Part shown: one piece after another, positions 6,404 through 62,937 of the stretch | Numbering within the stretch: the first letter of the stretch is position 1 | Layout: every line of letters starts with the position of its first letter | Sequence record: PQ850608.1 | Reading direction: 5' to 3' (one strand) | DNA length: 64,000 nt | DNA from: Escherichia phage HermannAdler_Bas98 | Notes under the pieces: model-generated | The model's database searches: none | Told to the model about the DNA's origin: nothing | What the model saw: the letters and a program-made list of their open reading frames with translations, nothing else | Position numbers and translations under genes: made by a program

Positions 6404-6579
6404 AGAGGAAGTTATGCAAAAGATTATTCAGTCACGTTATGTTAAAGTGCGAAATATTAATTGCAACTCTTTGCTTTCTTGGAAATGGGCCGTTTACGAC
6501 TCGATGTTAATTGGCGTTTTAGTTGCAGGAGTGCTATTTAATATTCACTGAATTCATCGGCAAAGGATTGCCGCGAGTT

Positions 6580-6870
6580 TTATACGTATAATGACGTATC
6601 ATCCGTATCAAGTAAGTTATTGTTTTCAAAAGAATCTTACGGATGATACGGATGATACGCGTTGCCGCCGTACTATATAGGAATTCAAATAAATTAATTT
6701 AAAATTATATATCTAATTTAATTTTATTTTTTTATAAACTCTTATATATGAAAAGTATCCGTATCATCCGTATCATCCGTAGCACACCAGTGATAGCGCG
6801 GCTTATACACCGATACGGATAAAAATACGCCTCATTTTATCCGTATCATCCGTATCACACTAATAAAGGC
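6580..6870. repeat. Iteron array flanking AT-rich spacer (copy A of a duplicated element)
   Basis: Multiple direct and inverted copies of CCGTATCAT / GGATGATACGGATGATACG around an AT-rich core (AATTAATTTAAAATTATAT...TTTTTTT); homologous to 58900-59170. Confidence 0.7.
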
Positions 6871-6914
6871 GCGGCTATATTGGTTGTTATACATATTCAA
6901 ACCATAATTATTGT

Positions 6915-6943
6915 TTGCCTAAGTTTTTTTCATTAGATATAAT
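6915..6943 (+). promoter_or_regulatory. Sigma70-like promoter TTGCCT-N17-TATAAT upstream of scaffold/capsid genes
   Basis: -35 TTGCCT 6915-6920, 17-nt spacer, -10 TATAAT 6938-6943; RBS GAGGGTGG then ATG 6973. Confidence 0.6.
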
Positions 6944-6972
6944 ACACAATACTTATTTGAGGGTGGATGCGA

Positions 6973-46587: not shown

Positions 46588-47670
46588 ATGGCTAGTTTAA
46601 GAGAAGAAGCAAAAATAATCGAAGAGTTTTTGACGGAACTCCAAAGAGGCATTCCAGAAGACGAACGCGTCATGACCGTGTTTGCGCCTGAAGCGACAGT
46701 GCAGACTGACGAGCGCGGCAAGAAGATCAACAGCAGCTTCTGGCCTAAGCCTTGGAAGTTGGGCAAGTCGCTCATGCAGCACCAAAACGGCTATGCGTGC
46801 ATCAGTTCAATGCGTAAGTCTCCCAACCCAAAGACGGGTGAGATGCGATACTGGCGTACAGAGTCGGCCTTTGGTCACGGCATGGCGATGATGGTCGACG
46901 ACATCGGTCACGGTAAAGGGTCCAAAGGCGATTTAGATTTGGAATTCTTTTTTGAGCGACTGAAGCCGACTGTCATCGTCGAGACTTCACCGAACAACCA
47001 CCAGCTTTGGTACTTCTTTAAAGAACCGATTGACCATCTTATTCAGTTCAAAGCGTTCCTTGGGTCTTTCGTTAACATGGTACTCAAGAAGGGCGGCGAC
47101 AACACGATTAAAGACGTAACGCGCGTGGGCCGTGTTCCTGGGTGCATCAACAACAAGCGTGTGACTCACGACGGCCCCTATAAATATGTCGATGAGAACG
47201 GCGACCCGTTCCGCTGCCGACTTGTCCATGCAGACTACTCATTGCGCTACACCATCGAAGACATTTGTCAGGCATTTGGCTTTCACGTCGTCATGCCGCA
47301 AAAGCGTGAGATTCAAATTGACGTCGATGAATACAAGTATGATGCTGTTTGGTATAAAATAGCCCAGCAGATTCTATCGCGCAACAAAATGGGTGAAGGG
47401 TCTGATGGCGACGTCATCGAGAACATGTCAGGCAAGTGCCGCATAATCTGTCCTTGGGGTGAAGAACACACCAACGGCGACCCGTATGGCGCTTACTTTC
47501 GCGGCCCTATTCCTGGTGCAGAACATGAGTTTGTGTTCGGTTGCGCCCACGACTGTCACCGGAAAGGGGAAGGCAAGAAAGGTTGGACTGCTTTTGTTGA
47601 AGCAATCGTCATGCCTTATATTGAGAATCAACTTGACATGATAAATCGTCGTGCAGGTGGCATAAAATAG
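46588..47670 (+). CDS. Primase-like protein (archaeo-eukaryotic primase-type suspected) with C-terminal Cys/His cluster
   Basis: Acidic DxD-type motif MMVDDIGHG, SPNNHQLWY block, C-terminal CPWGEEH...CAHDCH metal-binding cluster; adjacent to VirE-like P-loop protein. Confidence 0.45.
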   Translation: MASLREEAKIIEEFLTELQRGIPEDERVMTVFAPEATVQTDERGKKINSSFWPKPWKLGKSLMQHQNGYACISSMRKSPNPKTGEMRYWRTESAFGHGMAMMVDDIGHGKGSKGDLDLEFFFERLKPTVIVETSPNNHQLWYFFKEPIDHLIQFKAFLGSFVNMVLKKGGDNTIKDVTRVGRVPGCINNKRVTHDGPYKYVDENGDPFRCRLVHADYSLRYTIEDICQAFGFHVVMPQKREIQIDVDEYKYDAVWYKIAQQILSRNKMGEGSDGDVIENMSGKCRIICPWGEEHTNGDPYGAYFRGPIPGAEHEFVFGCAHDCHRKGEGKKGWTAFVEAIVMPYIENQLDMINRRAGGIK

Positions 47671-48979: not shown

Positions 48980-50650
48980 ATGTCAATTAATAATGACAAT
49001 CTTCCAGAGGATACAGGTGATGAATTTGGTGCAATCTTTGACGAAATTCAAGATGCAGGCGTTTCGGAAGAAATGCAGGCAGCAGAGCAGCAAGGCACCA
49101 GAGCTAAAATCAGCCTTCAACACAAAGCCGTTGAAAAAGATTCAGAGCGCATGGAATGCTACGGTGAAGAAGACTTGGTTGAAAGAGCACGCTTGCTCGC
49201 CTCACTTCAGGTAATCAAGTTCCCTCACTACAAGCCTACCAAAGATGACTTCGTTCTACAGGCAGACCGGACGAGTGACATGAACCGTTATGCGGTTTTC
49301 GACGCGTTGTTTGATAAGGGAAGTGGCGTTGTTCCATTCCCTCACAAAGATACTTTTCGTGGGCGCTTAGTCGACCATCGCGGCGAAACTTTCACCGACC
49401 GGACGTTGGAAGTCACAGAGATAGTTGCCGCTGTCGACGCAGCAGGTCTGTCCAACCCAAACTCACGTCAGGTAGCTCAATCCTATAAGGAATGGGCTAT
49501 GCGTTATCAGCGTGACGACCTGATGGACTTCTTCTACAAGAAGCTGCCTGAATGGGACGGTACTGCGCGCATTGAGAAATACCTTATCGAGCTATTCCGA
49601 CCGTTCGATACAGAGTTAAACCGACAAATCGGTGTGTATTTTTGGCTATCGCTCTACAACCGACTGACCAACCCTGGCTGTCAAGCGCCAATCTCCATCG
49701 CGCTCATCGGCGGCCAGAACGCAGGGAAGAGTTATTTTAGCAAGCTACTTTGCGAAGCTATTATGAACGACCGCCACGCAACACCGATTCCGTTGAACTT
49801 AGCCGCGCAGAACTTCAACCCGTTCTTGCGAGCTATTACGGGTCGCTCAATTATCGCGAACGTCGGCGAGATGACAGGCTTTAAAAAGGCCGACATCGAA
49901 AACATGAAAGCATTCCTGACTAAGACGGAAGATGACCTGGACTTCAAATTTGAAGATACTCAGGTTAAACCACGCCAGTGGATTGCTATCATGGACGGCA
50001 ACGAATACGCAGGCATGCAGCGTGATGACACGGGCAACCGTCGTGTGTATCCTATCTTTGTTGGCCAACTCGCTGACAAGGACGGGCAACCGAACTGGTC
50101 GAAAGATTTCCAAGCTGACCTTTCCACTTTGAAAGAAGACGTTTGGCAGTTGATGGCTGAGTGCGCTGCATGGATGGAGAAGCACGGCGAAGCAGGCTAT
50201 AACGCGTTTGTTGGTGAAACATCTCGCATGCTTACTGAGTTCAGTAAAAACGAAATGGAACGTGCACGCGGCGTTATTCGTGATGAGATGGTTGACAACG
50301 ACCTTGTTGAAGTCGTCATCACCGCGCCTTATGACCGACATCACAGCGGACGCTGGCACATCACCAGTGGTGCTATTGCTATGGGATTCAGAGCGAAGTG
50401 CGGCAAGTCGCCTTTCTCTCGTACCCTTGCGCCGCACATGTCGAAGCTTGGTTTTGAGCCTGCGACCTATCGCAACCAGCGCGGTTACTTTACGCCGCTG
50501 ATTAAGAATGAAGCAGGGGAATACATTTCCGACTTGATGACCATCTTAGCGTATCTTATCCGTGATGAGTCTGACCCTGAAGATATTGAATTCTTGAAGA
50601 AGGTTATCGAGCGTAAACGTTCTTTGGGAAGAGATAAGGATGAATTCTGA
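48980..50650 (+). CDS. VirE-like / primase-associated P-loop NTPase (putative replicative helicase)
   Basis: Walker A IGGQNAGKS; 556 aa; RBS AGGAGG; adjacency to primase-like gene. Confidence 0.55.
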   Translation: MSINNDNLPEDTGDEFGAIFDEIQDAGVSEEMQAAEQQGTRAKISLQHKAVEKDSERMECYGEEDLVERARLLASLQVIKFPHYKPTKDDFVLQADRTSDMNRYAVFDALFDKGSGVVPFPHKDTFRGRLVDHRGETFTDRTLEVTEIVAAVDAAGLSNPNSRQVAQSYKEWAMRYQRDDLMDFFYKKLPEWDGTARIEKYLIELFRPFDTELNRQIGVYFWLSLYNRLTNPGCQAPISIALIGGQNAGKSYFSKLLCEAIMNDRHATPIPLNLAAQNFNPFLRAITGRSIIANVGEMTGFKKADIENMKAFLTKTEDDLDFKFEDTQVKPRQWIAIMDGNEYAGMQRDDTGNRRVYPIFVGQLADKDGQPNWSKDFQADLSTLKEDVWQLMAECAAWMEKHGEAGYNAFVGETSRMLTEFSKNEMERARGVIRDEMVDNDLVEVVITAPYDRHHSGRWHITSGAIAMGFRAKCGKSPFSRTLAPHMSKLGFEPATYRNQRGYFTPLIKNEAGEYISDLMTILAYLIRDESDPEDIEFLKKVIERKRSLGRDKDEF

Positions 50651-57932: not shown

Positions 57933-58381
57933 TGGGTAACAAGCTTATCGCCGCTGGTTGGGCCATACCGAAGTGGGCTCATCGTGCGCACTACTTTGAT
58001 GAAGGAGAAGTGCAAAGCCTTTGCGGTCGCGCAACATACTTTGGTGATGAGCGCGTCAGCGGCGATTACATCGACTCGCTTTTAGGCAAAGGTGATTGCA
58101 AGAAATGTCAGGATATATTAAGAGATATTCTAACGCAAAAAGGACTGCTTGAGCTTGATGAGTCGGAGGAAGTAATAGAGCTTAAGCTTGAAGCCAATCA
58201 CCTTATTAATATGTTCAAGAATTATTACTCAACGAATATGCGCTCAAAGATGCGTGAGGAAGTAATAAAAGAGGTGCTCACTTACAATCCGTTAAGGATG
58301 AATAAAACTAAACTGAAGAAGTTTAATGCAATAGTAAGAAAGGAATTTAGACGGCTTGGAGTGAAGAATTTTATATTTTAA
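57929..58381 (+). CDS. Hypothetical protein
   Basis: 150-aa ORF followed by strong terminator. Confidence 0.45.
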   Translation: MMGNKLIAAGWAIPKWAHRAHYFDEGEVQSLCGRATYFGDERVSGDYIDSLLGKGDCKKCQDILRDILTQKGLLELDESEEVIELKLEANHLINMFKNYYSTNMRSKMREEVIKEVLTYNPLRMNKTKLKKFNAIVRKEFRRLGVKNFIF

Positions 58382-58396
58382 TTATGATTAATGTTA

Positions 58397-58422
58397 AGAG
58401 GGCCGATTGGCCCTTTTTATTT
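58397..58422 (+). terminator. Rho-independent terminator
   Basis: AGAGGGCCGATTGGCCCTTTTTATTTGCCTG: perfect GC stem plus U-run; same downstream TTTTTATTTGCCTG as at 55352. Confidence 0.7.
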
Positions 58423-58899
58423 GCCTGTGTAATGGGAGGCTTTTGTGGTTATTTACGATTCAAGGCTGTAATTTAAGAGAGCGAAAATATTATAATAATT
58501 TATCAAGATTATTGCATATTGTGGCAATCAACGTTTATACGTATTTATGACAGTTTAATCCACTAAATAATACGGATAGAACAGTGAGGAAAATACAGCG
58601 GTGTATTTTAGTGTAAATATTGAATCAAAAATAAATAATTATGGTGCTATTATATACGCAGATTGTTTGTAATTTATAGGATATTTTATCGTGGAGTATT
58701 GGCTAACGGTGCGTTAGCCGTGGGTCTTGGTGCTTGTGGTGTTGATGCTCAGAATTTTAATAATGTTTTTAGTTTTAGTAATCGTAGTCAATGATGATAC
58801 GTATAAGAAAATGAGAGTCACCCCTTCACAGGATATTGTACCGTGGCCCTGTGGTGCGCCGCGCCTGGGATTGCTGGTATACACTGGTGCTATTTTGCC

Positions 58900-59170
58900 G
58901 CGAAGGCAGTCATTCATACGTATCATGACGTATCATTGGGCTATTGATTTATAAGGAAAAATACGCTGATACGGATGATACGGGTGCAAACATAATATAT
59001 ATAGAATTCCAGAAAATTAATTAACTCCATTTTGAATTAATTTAAATTAATTTTTTTCTACATCCTCATACTTATACTAAACTTATATTCATACGTATCA
59101 TCCGTAAGATATAAGTAAAAACAAGGACTTGCGGCAATACGGATGATACGTCATGATACGCTTCGACCAG
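58900..59170. repeat. Iteron array flanking AT-rich spacer (copy B of a duplicated element)
   Basis: ACGTATCATGACGTATCAT, GATACGGATGATACG, CAATACGGATGATACGTCATGATACG around AT-rich core (AATTAATTAACTCCATTTTGAATTAATTTAAATTAATTTTTTT); collinear with 6580-6870. Confidence 0.7.
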
Positions 59171-59364
59171 CCAGCAGCGGCTAAGTCATTGATTTGCATA
59201 GCAAGCGGCGAAAGGGATGGATTTCTTTTATACGTATCAAACAGTACACCACGCACCACGGTCCGCAATCCTATTTGCAATATGATTTGTGTACGTTTAT
59301 AGCCATAATGAACATCAATCTGCACTTGAATATAATGTCCATCCATTGTATAATTCACACTATT

Positions 59365-60575
59365 AATTTGCACTATGGGATTTTGCACTATGAGTCAAGA
59401 TTATGTAGCGATGCCTGAAGACTTTGAAGACCCGCGATTCGCAGAGCACAATCAGGCTTTATTCGATGAGTTCATTGACCTTGTTATTCAGGGTCATGAC
59501 ATGCGCGCAGCTTTTGCACTAGTATTTGGAATGGAAGTTGCAACGGATAACTACACTGGCCAGCGAATCCTTTGCACGCAACGCAATCCATACTACAAGA
59601 TGCGCTTCAAAAAGCGTATGGAAGAGATGCCACTCAAGGATTTGTGGAGCGTAAAAGGTGCAATTCACAATTTGGTCAAGCTTGTGCGTGATCCAGAAGT
59701 CGCGGCGTCAGCCAAGCTTAATGCTATTCGTGAACTGAATATCATCTACGGCATCACGATGATTGATGAAAACGGCAATAGTAAAATGGGCCGTTCTATG
59801 GACGATTTCTACAAGGATTTTGGAGAGGCTGCCAAAGAAGGAGAGCAATTCTCCCGCCACTAGCCAATTTGCACTATAAAACGGCCCTAGAACACATGTT
59901 CTCCACTTCTAGGGCCATCGGTAATACGACGGGGAAGGTCGCACCCATAAACGCGTTAGAAAGTGTATTATTATAAGTCATCTTTTAGTCGCTTTACGTA
60001 ACAATTTACGACCTTCAACCGTCCAATCGAACGACTCCACCAGCAGATTCGCACTATAACCTAAGACGATGCGCCCTTTCTCGTTATCGACCCGCCAACA
60101 AGTCTCGAATAGCATTCGATTTGCACTATTAACTATTGCCGCAACGCGCGTAGGGTAAGCGCAATTTGCACTATGGTCGTAAAGGGATAAGGTGCGACCA
60201 CTTCCGATGGACAATGTAGCGATGAGAATAAGCGTATTCATAAGCCACCAATTTGCACTATGAAAAGCGACCCCGAAGGGCCGCCATTCGATTAGATAAT
60301 CTGGAAGGTGTAGGACTTGTTGCCGAACTCGAAGTTCAAGCGTCCAGCTTCTTTAAGCTTCATGCGGAAGCGAATGTGCTTGCTATCCGGTAATCCCAGC
60401 GCGGCGAAGGCTACGCGGACCGATTTGAACTCGCCTACACCCTCGACCATAACGCCGTTACGGGTGAGACGCTTTTGCGCCACTTCCTTATTATCCCAAC
60501 TTTTTGCAATACCTTCGCTATTCGAACGGCGATGGGAAGGAGTTCCATTTTGCACTACGCAATTTGCACTATCGT
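59365..60575 (+). repeat. Dispersed cluster of 11-bp motif ATTTGCACTAT (at least 8 copies, same orientation)
   Basis: Copies read near 59365, 59381, 59867, 60046 (ATTCGCACTAT variant), 60120, 60166, 60251, 60547 and 60559; several lie inside predicted minus-strand ORFs. Confidence 0.6.
59390..59863 (+). CDS. Hypothetical protein
   Basis: 157 aa from Met6 of track ORF; start codon overlaps an ATTTGCACTAT motif copy. Confidence 0.45.
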   Translation: MSQDYVAMPEDFEDPRFAEHNQALFDEFIDLVIQGHDMRAAFALVFGMEVATDNYTGQRILCTQRNPYYKMRFKKRMEEMPLKDLWSVKGAIHNLVKLVRDPEVAASAKLNAIRELNIIYGITMIDENGNSKMGRSMDDFYKDFGEAAKEGEQFSRH

Positions 60576-60918
60576 TTAAGCCGCTCTTAACGAAGGCTTC
60601 ATACTCTTCATCGCTCATCGCGTCGAGTTCTTCCTGGGTCGGCTCAGCCTTTTTAACGACCGCACGCGCCTTATGCGTTTTTACATCACTGGACACTTCC
60701 TCACGCGGCTTCGCGTCGGGAATGGGCGATTCGTTGGACGGCTCATCGAGCGCGTTTAAGGACTCGATTAACGCGATTACGCGAGTCTCGGCGGTCCGGC
60801 GGTCCGCAAATTTCTTAATCGGCTTCGAACCGGAATTTGCATTATAAAATGCAACGAGGTCGGCGGTCTTAGTTGCGATAACGTCGCCGCTAGTAGAAAA
60901 GCGATTTAAGCTAACCAT
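60292..60918 (-). CDS. Hypothetical protein
   Basis: 208-aa ORF in CpG-rich terminal segment; contains two motif copies on the opposite strand. Confidence 0.4.
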   Translation of the reverse strand: MVSLNRFSTSGDVIATKTADLVAFYNANSGSKPIKKFADRRTAETRVIALIESLNALDEPSNESPIPDAKPREEVSSDVKTHKARAVVKKAEPTQEELDAMSDEEYEAFVKSGLNDSANCVVQNGTPSHRRSNSEGIAKSWDNKEVAQKRLTRNGVMVEGVGEFKSVRVAFAALGLPDSKHIRFRMKLKEAGRLNFEFGNKSYTFQII

Positions 60919-60998
60919 AATAAACTCCTATTTGTTAGGGCGCTAGGCGCGAAAGAATTTTATTAAAGCGCCGCGCACGACGCTCTAAAAATCCTCTC

Positions 60999-61313
60999 TT
61001 ACTCTTCGTCGTCTTCGATTAATTCGAGGGCGAAGGCGTAAGCTTTGCTATCGTAATTAACTAAAACGGCGAGTTCGAACTCGTTAATAAACGCCGTTTT
61101 ACCGCATAAATTTAATTCCGCATCGACTTCGAAGAATCCGTTTTCGTCGCGCTCTAAGCGAGAAGCAGCGAGTTGCTCGATTACCGTCGCGTCGTTAATT
61201 TCTTCGCCTAAGCGAACGCCGGAGAATTTCGCGAGAATTTCGCCGTAAGTAAGCGTAACGCCCTGGACTTCGGCGGCGGCGTTTTCGAGGGTAAAGCGGG
61301 TAACGATAGCCAT
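60999..61313 (-). CDS. Small acidic hypothetical protein
   Basis: 104 aa, acidic with C-terminal EDDEE; good coding character. Confidence 0.45.
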   Translation of the reverse strand: MAIVTRFTLENAAAEVQGVTLTYGEILAKFSGVRLGEEINDATVIEQLAASRLERDENGFFEVDAELNLCGKTAFINEFELAVLVNYDSKAYAFALELIEDDEE

Positions 61314-61537
61314 AATAAACTCCTAGTTGGGAGAGGCGTTAACGACCTATTCGTTAACTCATCCCGTCCCGATATGAGTACATTATAATATAGTGTAGAA
61401 AAAAGTAAAGCACTTTTTCGATAAAAATGCGATAAATTATTTTATCTTTTTTCTTTACTTCTTCGTACACTCGCGTATACTTGTTTATATCGAGACGGGC
61501 GATGGCCCTTTCTTCTACTAGCATCGGGAGCTTTATT

Positions 61538-61840
61538 ATGACTACTTTAATCTCTTCCATCCTTACTTACGACGAAGACCGCTTAACCGTTCGCTCTCTT
61601 ATCGCCGCCGTTAACGCGGAACTAGAATCTAGCGCCATTAAGGTCCGCGCGGTCGCCTTCATCGGCCTTTCCTTCGACGATATGAAGTATGCCGAACGTA
61701 GCGCCATCCGCTTCGCGAAGACCGACGACGAAGCCGTTACCCTTATCGAGACGGTTACGCCGCGCGGCGAAGCGTTAATTATCGTCGAGTATATCGACGT
61801 AGAAGGCGATAAATCTTATAAACATTTTATCGCAGAATAA
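61538..61840 (+). CDS. Small acidic hypothetical protein
   Basis: About 100 aa from Met20 of track ORF; preceded by shared promoter-like element. Confidence 0.4.
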   Translation: MTTLISSILTYDEDRLTVRSLIAAVNAELESSAIKVRAVAFIGLSFDDMKYAERSAIRFAKTDDEAVTLIETVTPRGEALIIVEYIDVEGDKSYKHFIAE

Positions 61841-61852
61841 CGAAAAAAGTGC

Positions 61853-61881
61853 TTTACTTCTTCGTACACTAAGACTATAAT
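61853..61881 (+). promoter_or_regulatory. Sigma70-like promoter TTTACT-N17-TATAAT containing shared element CTTTACTTCTTCGTACACT
   Basis: -35 TTTACT 61853-61858, -10 TATAAT 61876-61881; the 19-nt element also occurs at 61452-61470 upstream of 61538 gene. Confidence 0.5.
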
Positions 61882-61948
61882 GTTTTATATCGAGAGGGGA
61901 TGAGGTAGCGAATAGGTCACTACCCTCCCGACTAACTAGGAGAATATT

Positions 61949-62239
61949 ATGATTACTTTAGCCGCTATCCGTTCCGCTCGCGTCGAAACTTCCGAAAACT
62001 CTAACGTATTTGGCGAAAAACTTAAAAACGTTTATCTCTTTAACGTAGATGCGACTATCGAGGAGCTTCACAGTCCTATCGATTTTAGCGAATTTACGGA
62101 ACTCGAAGAGGAAGATATTTCTACCTTCCGCGTTACTATCGAAGGCAAGGTTTATTTTGCTACGGAGTTCGGCGGCGAATATCTCGCGGTATCCGAAGGC
62201 GAAGGCCGTTACTCTTTCTTTAAAATCGTTTCCTTATAA
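61949..62239 (+). CDS. Small acidic hypothetical protein
   Basis: 96 aa, Glu-rich; RBS AGGAG before ATG; followed by terminator. Confidence 0.45.
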   Translation: MITLAAIRSARVETSENSNVFGEKLKNVYLFNVDATIEELHSPIDFSEFTELEEEDISTFRVTIEGKVYFATEFGGEYLAVSEGEGRYSFFKIVSL

Positions 62240-62257
62240 TACCCTTCCGTTACTAAT

Positions 62258-62286
62258 AGGCCGCGCTTAGTCGCGGCTTTTCTTCG
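62258..62286 (+). terminator. Rho-independent terminator
   Basis: GGCCGCGCTTAGTCGCGGC hairpin then TTTTCTT. Confidence 0.6.
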
Positions 62287-62937
62287 TCCCTATCTCGATG
62301 CGCTCCTACGCGAAAACTCCTTTATCCTTCCCTTCGTCGTCGCATAATCTTCTTCGAGATGCGTCTTAGTTCGCATAACAGGTATTACGTTAAATGGAGA
62401 ACATCGCGTAAGTCCTTGTTTTATATAGACACCTATATCGGACCGTTAGGGCGGGTCGCGTAAGTCGTTGTTTTATAAAGGCACAAAACTTTCCCTTCGT
62501 TCCGAACTAAAACGAGAAATATGCCGACCCTTCGCCCGAAAATAGTACGTATGCGAAATTACATTCATCTCGAATAATCCCTCCCGATATTATCCTACAC
62601 GCAATCATTCGCTTTCGAATCATTATGCTTCATATTATTATGCGTCGAATCATTCGCTTTCGAATTGTAACGCTGGAAACTGTAACGTCGATTGATTATT
62701 GCGTTCGTGTGGTTTTTATGGCATGGGTCTTTTGGTGCGTTTTGCTACTTGATGGAATTTGCGGTACACTAATCAAAATACGACACATTTGGTCCACTAA
62801 CTTTTCAAAGAAAAAGTCCTAGACAGTACCGTACTATTTTGTACCCACAGGAAATTTGCAGTACACTCCTGAGCGGCAGGCAAAATAAAGGGCCGCACTA
62901 AGCGACCCACGATTCACGGTTAAATCAGCAACACCCA

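Follow-up and report, generated by a model that had tools for sequence, protein, structure and literature searches.

A pair of repeat-flanked AT-rich modules in Escherichia phage HermannAdler_Bas98 and its relatives: candidate replication origins, one of which contains the probable packaging start

What is the function of a gene-poor gap in which short repeats surround an AT-rich core, and why does the same genome carry a second, related element far away? The question is raised by the gap at positions 58382–59389 in a 64,000-nt stretch of the DNA of Escherichia phage HermannAdler_Bas98 (sequence record PQ850608.1), which was analysed as a whole and is called the window below. The source of the window is a Wifcevirus, a PB1-like myophage of Escherichia coli; the closest record is that of phage ManiWeber_Bas99 (98.5% identity) and, as in that record, the window starts with the large terminase gene (1–1428). 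The limits of the gap were confirmed: the final gene of the early plus-strand block stops at 58381 and the small terminase gene, terS, begins at 59390. The element in the gap (copy B) and its partner (copy A) match 28 Wifcevirus records of E. coli and Shigella myophages related to Pseudomonas phage PB1. A preliminary description of the window had taken the two for related but non-identical iteron/AT modules, maintained as functional sites. The analysis gives slightly better than even chances that the module common to both copies is a Rep-type replication origin, so that the phage would have two origins, with a VapE-like superfamily 3 (SF3) helicase as the initiator; copy B, in addition, apparently contains the genome end.

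Copy B consists of GATACG-type repeats of 9–10 bp, which form inverted arrays on both sides of an AT-rich core of about 100 bp. The core (58984–59089) has a GC content of 0.15–0.27 in 60-nt windows. The left side comprises an outer array of two CGTATCAT units on the minus strand (58915–58936) and an inner array on the plus strand (58960–58983), built from AATACG, GATACGG and GATACGG with 9-nt spacing. The right side comprises an inner array on the minus strand, CATACGTATCATCCGTAAG (59090–59108), and an outer array on the plus strand containing AATACGG, ATGATACGT and CATGATACG (59136–59160). The outer arrays include a perfect 18-nt inverted repeat (58919–58936 with 59143–59160), and the right-inner array has a 14-nt perfect inverted partner at 59138–59151. 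These repeats are confined to the two elements. The motif ATACGKATSAT occurs nine times in the 64 kb, compared with 0.10 expected from shuffles (90-fold), and all nine occurrences lie at 6598–6855 or 58794–59147; clusters of GATACG are found at only two places, copies A and B, in the window as well as in the whole 68-kb Bas99 genome. Each half of the module folds well as single-stranded DNA (ssDNA; z from −3.6 to −5.5). As the sole explanation of the repeats, ssDNA hairpins were rejected: the tandem units within the arrays and the identical units at A and B favour protein-binding repeats.

Copy A (6558–6880, plus strand) has a hairpin, arrays and an AT core in a layout like that of copy B. A terminator-like hairpin (6558–6573) is followed by left arrays at 6582–6612 (minus) and 6636–6659 (plus), the AT core (6670–6754) and right arrays at 6755–6783 (minus), 6812–6829 (plus) and 6837–6858 (minus). 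A promoter with a 10/12 match (6915–6943) and then the head maturation protease gene, starting at 6967, lie 3′ of the element. In both copies, the AT-rich centre has two or more repeats on each side, and those of the two sides point in opposing directions. The copies have the same orientation and are about 52.3 kb apart. A MAFFT alignment of A and B, about 350 nt long, shows a mean column identity of 76%. Local alignment of 6568–6781 with 58895–59106 gives 69% identity and a score of 101, as against a mean of 27.9 and a maximum of 42 for shuffles in which the position of the AT-rich core was preserved; an alignment of just the two cores scores 46 versus 24.6 ± 4.2, above all 500 shuffles made for them. 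Since the alignment scores exceed those of core-preserving shuffles, the similarity is not generic AT-richness; the identity is also far below the near-100% expected of a terminal repeat or a duplication. The relatedness, common orientation and spacing of about 52 kb that the preliminary description had proposed, as well as its rejection of an assembly artefact or terminal redundancy, are thus borne out by layout, motif counts and alignment.

The pair is also conserved far beyond this phage. Copy A is 95–99% identical in all 28 Wifcevirus records, and the two modules recur in Pantoea phage Kyle, Pbunavirus, phage MyoSmar and three metagenomic lineages, one preceding the head protease gene and the other terS. 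This presence at the same places in distant genera agrees with the proposal of two maintained functional sites. The survey of the module was made by scanning viral contigs with the protease and the helicase; a scan based on TerS reached three genera. In all seven lineages compared, inverted arrays surround an AT core, and each lineage has its own repeat, common to its A and B: the copies have 27–46 8-mers in common within one lineage and 4–17 between lineages (seven lineages in which both copies were recovered). Examples of the lineage repeats are GGTTATT, GGTAATT, TACTTTTCG, GGAAAGTA, TTATCCGATAA and TTGCGG. Phage Kyle, whose TerS is 43% identical, has the same two gaps with an AT core and inverted arrays, with the repeat GGTTATT/GGATATT. 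The pair is present with GGTAATT repeats in Pbunavirus phages PS44 and JG024; exactly two clusters per unique genome are found in both Kyle and PS44. In MyoSmar, TACTTTTCG-type repeats flank both the A core and the B core; the nucleotide identity of this phage to ECML-117 is only 17%, yet copy A occupies the same syntenic position. Further lineages with the module have their own repeats as well, including GGAAAGTA, TTATCCGATAA, TTGCGG, CTTCCCGG, CCGGTATA, TAACTAAG and AAGGTTA. In a more distant relative, L160, the GATACG repeat is unchanged, at 75% identity of the helicase and 64% of TerS. Given the tandem units in the arrays and the lineage-specific units common to both sites, one sequence-specific protein in each lineage probably reads both A and B.

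Two observations on copy A in other genomes may be added. A Wifcevirus metagenomic contig, L020 (IMG/VR 3300045988_152943), ends inside the inner repeat array of copy A, probably an assembly break at sequence common to A and B. In L036 (XcP1), L037, L048 and L049, there is a short gap before the head maturation protease gene, without the repeat module at that position.

Copy B differs from copy A in its relation to the virion DNA end. Data from relatives, mapped onto the window, place the presumed terminase cut between 59029 and 59030, inside the AT core of copy B, at the left end of a putative direct terminal repeat of 3,703 bp (59030–62732, plus strand). Phage Mansfield opens with a direct terminal repeat of 3,673 bp predicted by PhageTerm (PMC6753283); the first base of its record corresponds to window position 59030 and its last bases to ...AATTAACTCC, which ends at 59029. 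Phages WFC and WFH were sequenced independently, with repeats of about 3.7 kb at both ends (PMC6563267); their records start at the same base as that of Mansfield and contain internally identical repeats of 3,784 bp (WFC) and 3,701 bp (WFH). The right boundary lies at 62732/62733 in Mansfield and WFH and 81 bp further, at 62813/62814, in WFC. The motif AATTAACTCC/ATTTT (59020–59034; the slash marks the cut) is invariant, and in an alignment of nine genomes including L160, AAAA..AATTAACTCCATTTT around the cut is invariant too. Since the sequence at the cut is identical in the three mapped relatives, both the start of packaging and the boundary of the repeat in HermannAdler_Bas98 very probably lie at copy B.

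Data from other genera point to the same place. The Kyle record, with a repeat of 3,603 bp, starts inside Kyle's own B core, and the PhageTerm boundary of MyoSmar, 3559, falls in the MyoSmar B core between TACTTTTCG-type repeats. Of 161 long reads of JG024, 36 start at 59,376 ± 5, where a pac fragment also maps (PMC10913387); this position is the left edge of the JG024 B core, and the PS44 record begins there too. How the ends are formed may not be the same in every genus. The cut also coincides with a break in conservation. To its left (58382–58984), WFC, WFH, Mansfield, ECML-117, FEC19 and L160 are mosaic, with three to four unrelated versions, and the left-inner array is kept in all nine aligned relatives despite this mosaic; to its right, inside the repeat, the sequence is nearly invariant, and the pair L143/L144 is alike in this respect. 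According to the transferred coordinates, copy B is the only element with a virion DNA end inside it; no record or read data place an end at A.

Some observations concern the records and the other end of the repeat. The PS44 record (NC_028939), which starts at the B core, contains terS twice (602 and 60998); a 68.8-kb genome of a Pbunavirus has been called duplicated or misassembled in another paper. At the right boundary of the terminal repeat, no GATACG repeats were found. The gene-free gap there (62400–62870) has direct repeats of its own: CGCGTAAGTCnTTGTTTTATA at about 62405 and 62457, AATCATTCGCTTTCGAAT at 62603 and 62648, two copies of TGTAACG, and GGAATTTGCrGTACAC at 62754 and 62851. 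A sequence just past the boundary, GTACACTAATCA, is conserved in Kyle. TGGTGCG, present at both repeat boundaries, was rejected as a signal, since its 14 copies in the window make it not significant.

Several features of copy B are missing from copy A, and the two are not functionally equivalent. The cut motif AATTAACTCC/ATTTT is found in B only. The left flank of B (58690–58880, plus strand) is G-skewed and GTGG-rich, with a GC skew of +0.4 to +0.5 and three to six GTGG-like words per 60 nt, and has no equivalent at A; TGTGGTGCGCCGCGCCTGGG lies within it, at 58850–58869. A GCGCCG...CTGGG motif is retained in the otherwise divergent left halves of Wifcevirus and in MyoSmar. On the right side (59226–59266, plus strand), an outlying repeat unit, TTTTATACGTATCAA, is followed by a CCAC-rich flank with AGTACACC at 59243–59250, likewise found only at B. 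The GTGG left flank and the CCAC right flank are more or less pronounced in Wifcevirus, Pbunavirus, Kyle and contig 3300013308; no copy A has them. The window contains three matches to RGTACACY (59243, 62763 and 62860), all on the plus strand and 30–215 nt to the right of a repeat boundary; three is the number expected by chance, and the pattern of their positions was recognised only in retrospect. AGTACAC occupies the corresponding positions in Kyle, and RGTACACY may be regarded as a candidate terminase-associated motif, common to both boundaries and absent from A. Neither the tie of copy B to the genome end nor the inequivalence of the copies had been foreseen in the preliminary description.

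Another sequence was considered as a mark of the module. CTTGCGGCAA, with a GCGGCA motif, lies right of the B core (59128–59137, plus strand), and its complement TGCCGCG lies left of the core (58896–58902); judged by eye, this left/right orientation is the same in Kyle, Pbunavirus, MyoSmar and many metagenomic lineages. TGCCGCG/CGCGGCA was rejected as a module-specific motif. The hexamer GCCGCG is present in 102 copies on the two strands of the window, about three times a naive expectation that takes account of neither shuffling nor codon usage; only the conserved orientation carries weight.

Which protein might read the repeats? The best candidate for a Rep-like, repeat-binding initiator is the product of the gene at 48980–50650 (plus strand), a VapE-like SF3 helicase (Pfam PF05272, E = 1.6e-28) that is similar to Rep1 of the Staphylococcus aureus pathogenicity island (SaPI) SaPI1 (PDB 7PDS; phmmer E = 4e-11). 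An AlphaFold2 model of the helicase, built with 68 homologues, has a mean pLDDT (predicted local distance difference test) of 90. In a Foldseek search with this model, the six best matches were chains of 7PDS (E from 8e-17 to 3e-15; template modelling score 0.6, normalised to the target), with alignments of about 480 columns to the 450-residue target, over nearly its full length, and about 17% identity to Rep1. The C-terminal part of the helicase, about 125 residues, is the fastest-diverging and least conserved; the model, which was compared as a whole, predicts a helix–helix–β-hairpin element at residues 459–504. A RepB-type DNA primase (46588–47670, plus strand; Pfam PF16793, E = 2.2e-36), encoded 1.3 kb upstream of the helicase gene, is its likely partner.

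In SaPIs, the Rep origin comprises 6–12 iterons located immediately downstream of rep and split by a central AT-rich region; the iterons, at least two per side and in opposite directions, are read by the C-terminal winged helix of Rep, a protein that self-loads on either flank of the AT region (PMC9371898). The module described here resembles this origin and its initiator (PMC9371898; PDB 7PDS and 7OLA) in the repeats split around an AT-rich centre in opposing orientation, in the candidate initiator, an SF3 helicase whose C-terminal domain is predicted to be a winged helix, and a primase encoded just upstream, in the repeat being specific to the element or lineage, and in the position directly 3′ of the helicase gene in 18 of 25 relatives. 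In these 18 lineages, the stop codon of the helicase gene, the module and terS follow one another within about 0.5–1.2 kb. Unlike SaPIs, HermannAdler_Bas98 is a virulent 68-kb myophage of Gram-negative hosts and not a satellite, and its genome has two copies of the module, one of which holds the packaging cut. The units are 9–10 bp long here and 5–6 bp in SaPIs, and an extra inverted array per side enables each half to form an ssDNA hairpin. The module is also 8 kb from the helicase gene in the window. It is therefore described as working like a SaPI origin and is not assigned to that class, because it is not immediately downstream of rep here. Small genes occupying several kilobases lie between the helicase gene and the module in Wifcevirus, Kyle and a small number of other lineages; the separation in the window looks like an insertion of these genes.

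The preliminary description had offered dual origins, partition-like sites and regulator-binding arrays as possible functions. Dual origins fit best, given the SaPI-Rep-like helicase, the Rep-type architecture and the fact that B follows the helicase gene on its 3′ side in the majority of relatives; there is no sign of partition sites, and the regulator array is a weak reading, since separate σ70-like promoters lie downstream of each module. As an origin, the module would be bound by the VapE-like helicase through its fast-evolving C-terminal domain, a winged helix as predicted by the model; the helicase would then melt the AT spacer and load itself, with the RepB-type primase cooperating. Of the two origins, oriB would immediately follow the helicase gene in the majority of relatives, and oriA would belong to the head-gene cluster, where it precedes the maturation protease gene. 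Terminase would make its initiating cut in the AT spacer of B, creating the left end of the 3.7-kb repeat, and packaging would proceed towards terS. The cut would probably be specified by the features found only at B, namely the AATTAACTCC/ATTTT motif, the GTGG/CCAC flanks and the GTACAC motif that is also present beside the right boundary. Copy B, which adjoins terS and, in relatives, the helicase gene, may have acquired terminase start signals or may always have had them.

Several points weigh against this scheme. In the window, copy B (near 58900) is 8.2 kb downstream of the end of the helicase gene at 50650 and does not adjoin it, and copy A is across the genome; an origin amid the head-gene cluster would also be unusual. 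Copy A is absent from the protease-upstream position in four of the 22 upstream regions of relatives listed. Over 171 lineage pairs, the similarity of the repeats correlates with that of the helicase C-terminus, the helicase core and TerS (Spearman 0.21–0.33), all three tracking phylogeny. Copy B is directly upstream of terS and holds the packaging cut, and TerS is thus still a possible binder. The coordinates of the terminal repeat were transferred from related phages, and packaging in Pbunavirus was reported to be headful and circularly permuted, with a preferred start, and not fixed-ended (PMC10913387). Published guesses of the origin for this group are GC-skew minima elsewhere in the genome (PMC12390725). 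In the window, GC content and cumulative skew follow gene orientation and carry no information on origins.

The most serious alternative, although rather unlikely, is that the module is a terminase recognition site, where the arrays flanking the core would be bound by TerS rings and the DNA between them cut by TerL. Copy B would then be the active pac, and copy A a second TerS site, uncut or rarely cut, which may serve to titrate TerS, to form a pair with B or to couple the expression of head genes with packaging. The location of the genome end in the B core in four genera and the position of B directly upstream of terS in every lineage examined fit this idea, and TerS proteins, with 39–43% identity between lineages, could carry lineage-specific recognition. 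Arrays flanking the cut are also the known layout of pac in phages P1 and SPP1: in P1 pac and in pacL-pacC-pacR of SPP1, the cut is made between two sets of short repeats beside the small terminase gene, and the repeats are read by the small terminase. Those sites, however, occur once per genome, whereas here a second copy lies far from terS and has no cut motif. Copy A also has neither the GTGG/CCAC flanks nor the GTACAC motif, and there are no end data at A; a second pac-type site in the head operon is of no obvious use, and cutting there would destroy genomes. TerS as the reader of the repeats is argued against by the homologous TerS of Pbunavirus phage E217, which showed no appreciable DNA binding in vitro (PMC9611059). 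The architecture and the location 3′ of the helicase gene fit a Rep-type origin equally well or better.

Control of transcription by the modules is considered quite improbable. A regulator bound to the repeats would switch terS at B and the protease and capsid genes at A, with the AT core serving as a promoter or UP-like element. In favour of this idea, the two copies share one orientation, and each is preceded by a terminator-like hairpin and followed by the start of a gene. The A core of JG024 was listed by the authors of that genome only as a predicted σ70 promoter, along with ‘AT-rich boxes’ of unknown function (PMC3008698), and phage 14-1 has a second, non-σ70 class of promoters with a CTGGG core (PMC10914365), a sequence that also occurs in the left flank of B. 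Neither core, however, contains a good promoter match; the 10/12 sites are downstream, at 6915–6943 and 59309–59354, and TATAAT-type boxes likewise precede the protease gene in other lineages. An operator would not typically consist of symmetric inverted arrays with a 100-bp AT spacer between them, and the genome end in the B core would be left unexplained. That A (or B) is a decaying non-functional duplicate kept similar only by occasional gene conversion, or an artefact of assembly or of the terminal repeat, is hardly credible: A and B are only 69–76% identical and the L020 contig breaks in the repeats of A, so that a common repeat can confuse assemblers, but A is 95–99% conserved across the 28 independent isolates, keeps its syntenic position across genera otherwise very different in nucleotide sequence, has repeats that change in step with those of B in seven lineages and, lying about 12 kb beyond the right terminal-repeat boundary (62732), belongs to no terminal-repeat copy or assembly duplication.

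Paired sites bound by one initiator are known from other phages. The virulent Bacillus phage SPP1 has two origins, oriL and oriR, with repeated boxes and an AT-rich segment; both are bound by G38P and one is located in the late region. The arrangement proposed here is similar in having two separated sites for one phage initiator and differs in that the initiator families and the repeats are unrelated; to our knowledge, neither SPP1 origin has been reported to contain the pac cut. In phage P4, ori and crr are separated sets of one repeat, bound by the C-terminal domain of the SF3-type α primase–helicase. Unlike the modules described here, crr assists ori in cis from a few kilobases away and is not an independent AT-core module, and the cos ends of P4 are unrelated to ori. 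Phages T7 and T5 have direct terminal repeats and defined ends, with boundaries flanked by short repeated sequences. HermannAdler_Bas98 would resemble them in that its left end is fixed and its repeat has a set length (3.7 kb); we know of no description of a terminal-repeat boundary inside an iteron-flanked AT spacer for T7/T5-type phages. A literature search for this phage group found no description of the paired modules as origins or pac sites, nor of an overlap of origin and packaging site.

The location of the cut within a candidate origin raises the possibility that initiation of replication and of packaging are mechanistically coupled at oriB, with oriA as a plain origin without cut signals. 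This extension of the dual-origin reading is doubtful, and it could take two forms. In the first, the spacer melted or bent by Rep would be the substrate of terminase. In the second, the firing of oriB would copy the adjoining 3.7 kb, and every genome cut from the concatemer would have its own terminal repeat.

The surroundings of copy B contain further features. A terminator-like hairpin, GGGCC-GATT-GGCCC with a T run (58401–58424, plus strand), was found by direct reading and closes the upstream early operon; the WFH record annotates a terminator at the equivalent place, and a simple scan of the window did not list the hairpin. The small terminase gene (59390–59863, plus strand) sits within the direct terminal repeat and would thus be present in two copies in virion DNA. 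Its orthologue is annotated as TerS in Mansfield, and a profile of the window protein and two relatives matches the E217 TerS structure (PDB 7UXE) with E = 1.6e-81. It is preceded by two overlapping σ70-like promoters (59309–59354, plus strand; TGAACA-16-TATAAT and TTGAAT-17-TATAAT, 10/12 each), which are outside the repeat module. Along the direction of packaging, about 9 kb, including a block of minus-strand genes, separate terS from the large terminase gene. Just upstream of terS, TTTGCA(C/A)TATG is repeated three times (59274–59392), the last copy providing the start codon; in L160, this repeat is kept as three or four copies of TGCACTATG. They may act as a signal in translation or autoregulation of the small terminase.

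Several reading frames of 30–96 codons at 58384–59418 overlap the repeats and the AT core, including one that starts at 59153 in the right-outer array; some are annotated as hypothetical proteins in relatives (Bas99_0090–0093 and CPT_Mansfield_001). It is unlikely that these frames are genes; conservation of the region is too high for a test based on substitution patterns. Within 58200–59500, no Rfam covariance model gave a hit with an E value of 1 or less.

Few phages are used more often in therapy than the PB1-like myophages (Pbunavirus, Wifcevirus and relatives), and the published genome ends of Pbunavirus contradict each other. The pair of modules provides concrete candidates for both origins and for the packaging start. 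Rebooting and engineering of genomes need the true ends, and both gaps are unsuitable for disruption or insertion. The matched variants of repeats and proteins in the different lineages represent a natural series for studying changes in initiator specificity. The modules also suggest a possible link between an origin and the making of the long terminal repeat; if the firing of oriB does copy the adjoining 3.7 kb, this would settle a long-standing problem, the duplication of long direct terminal repeats.

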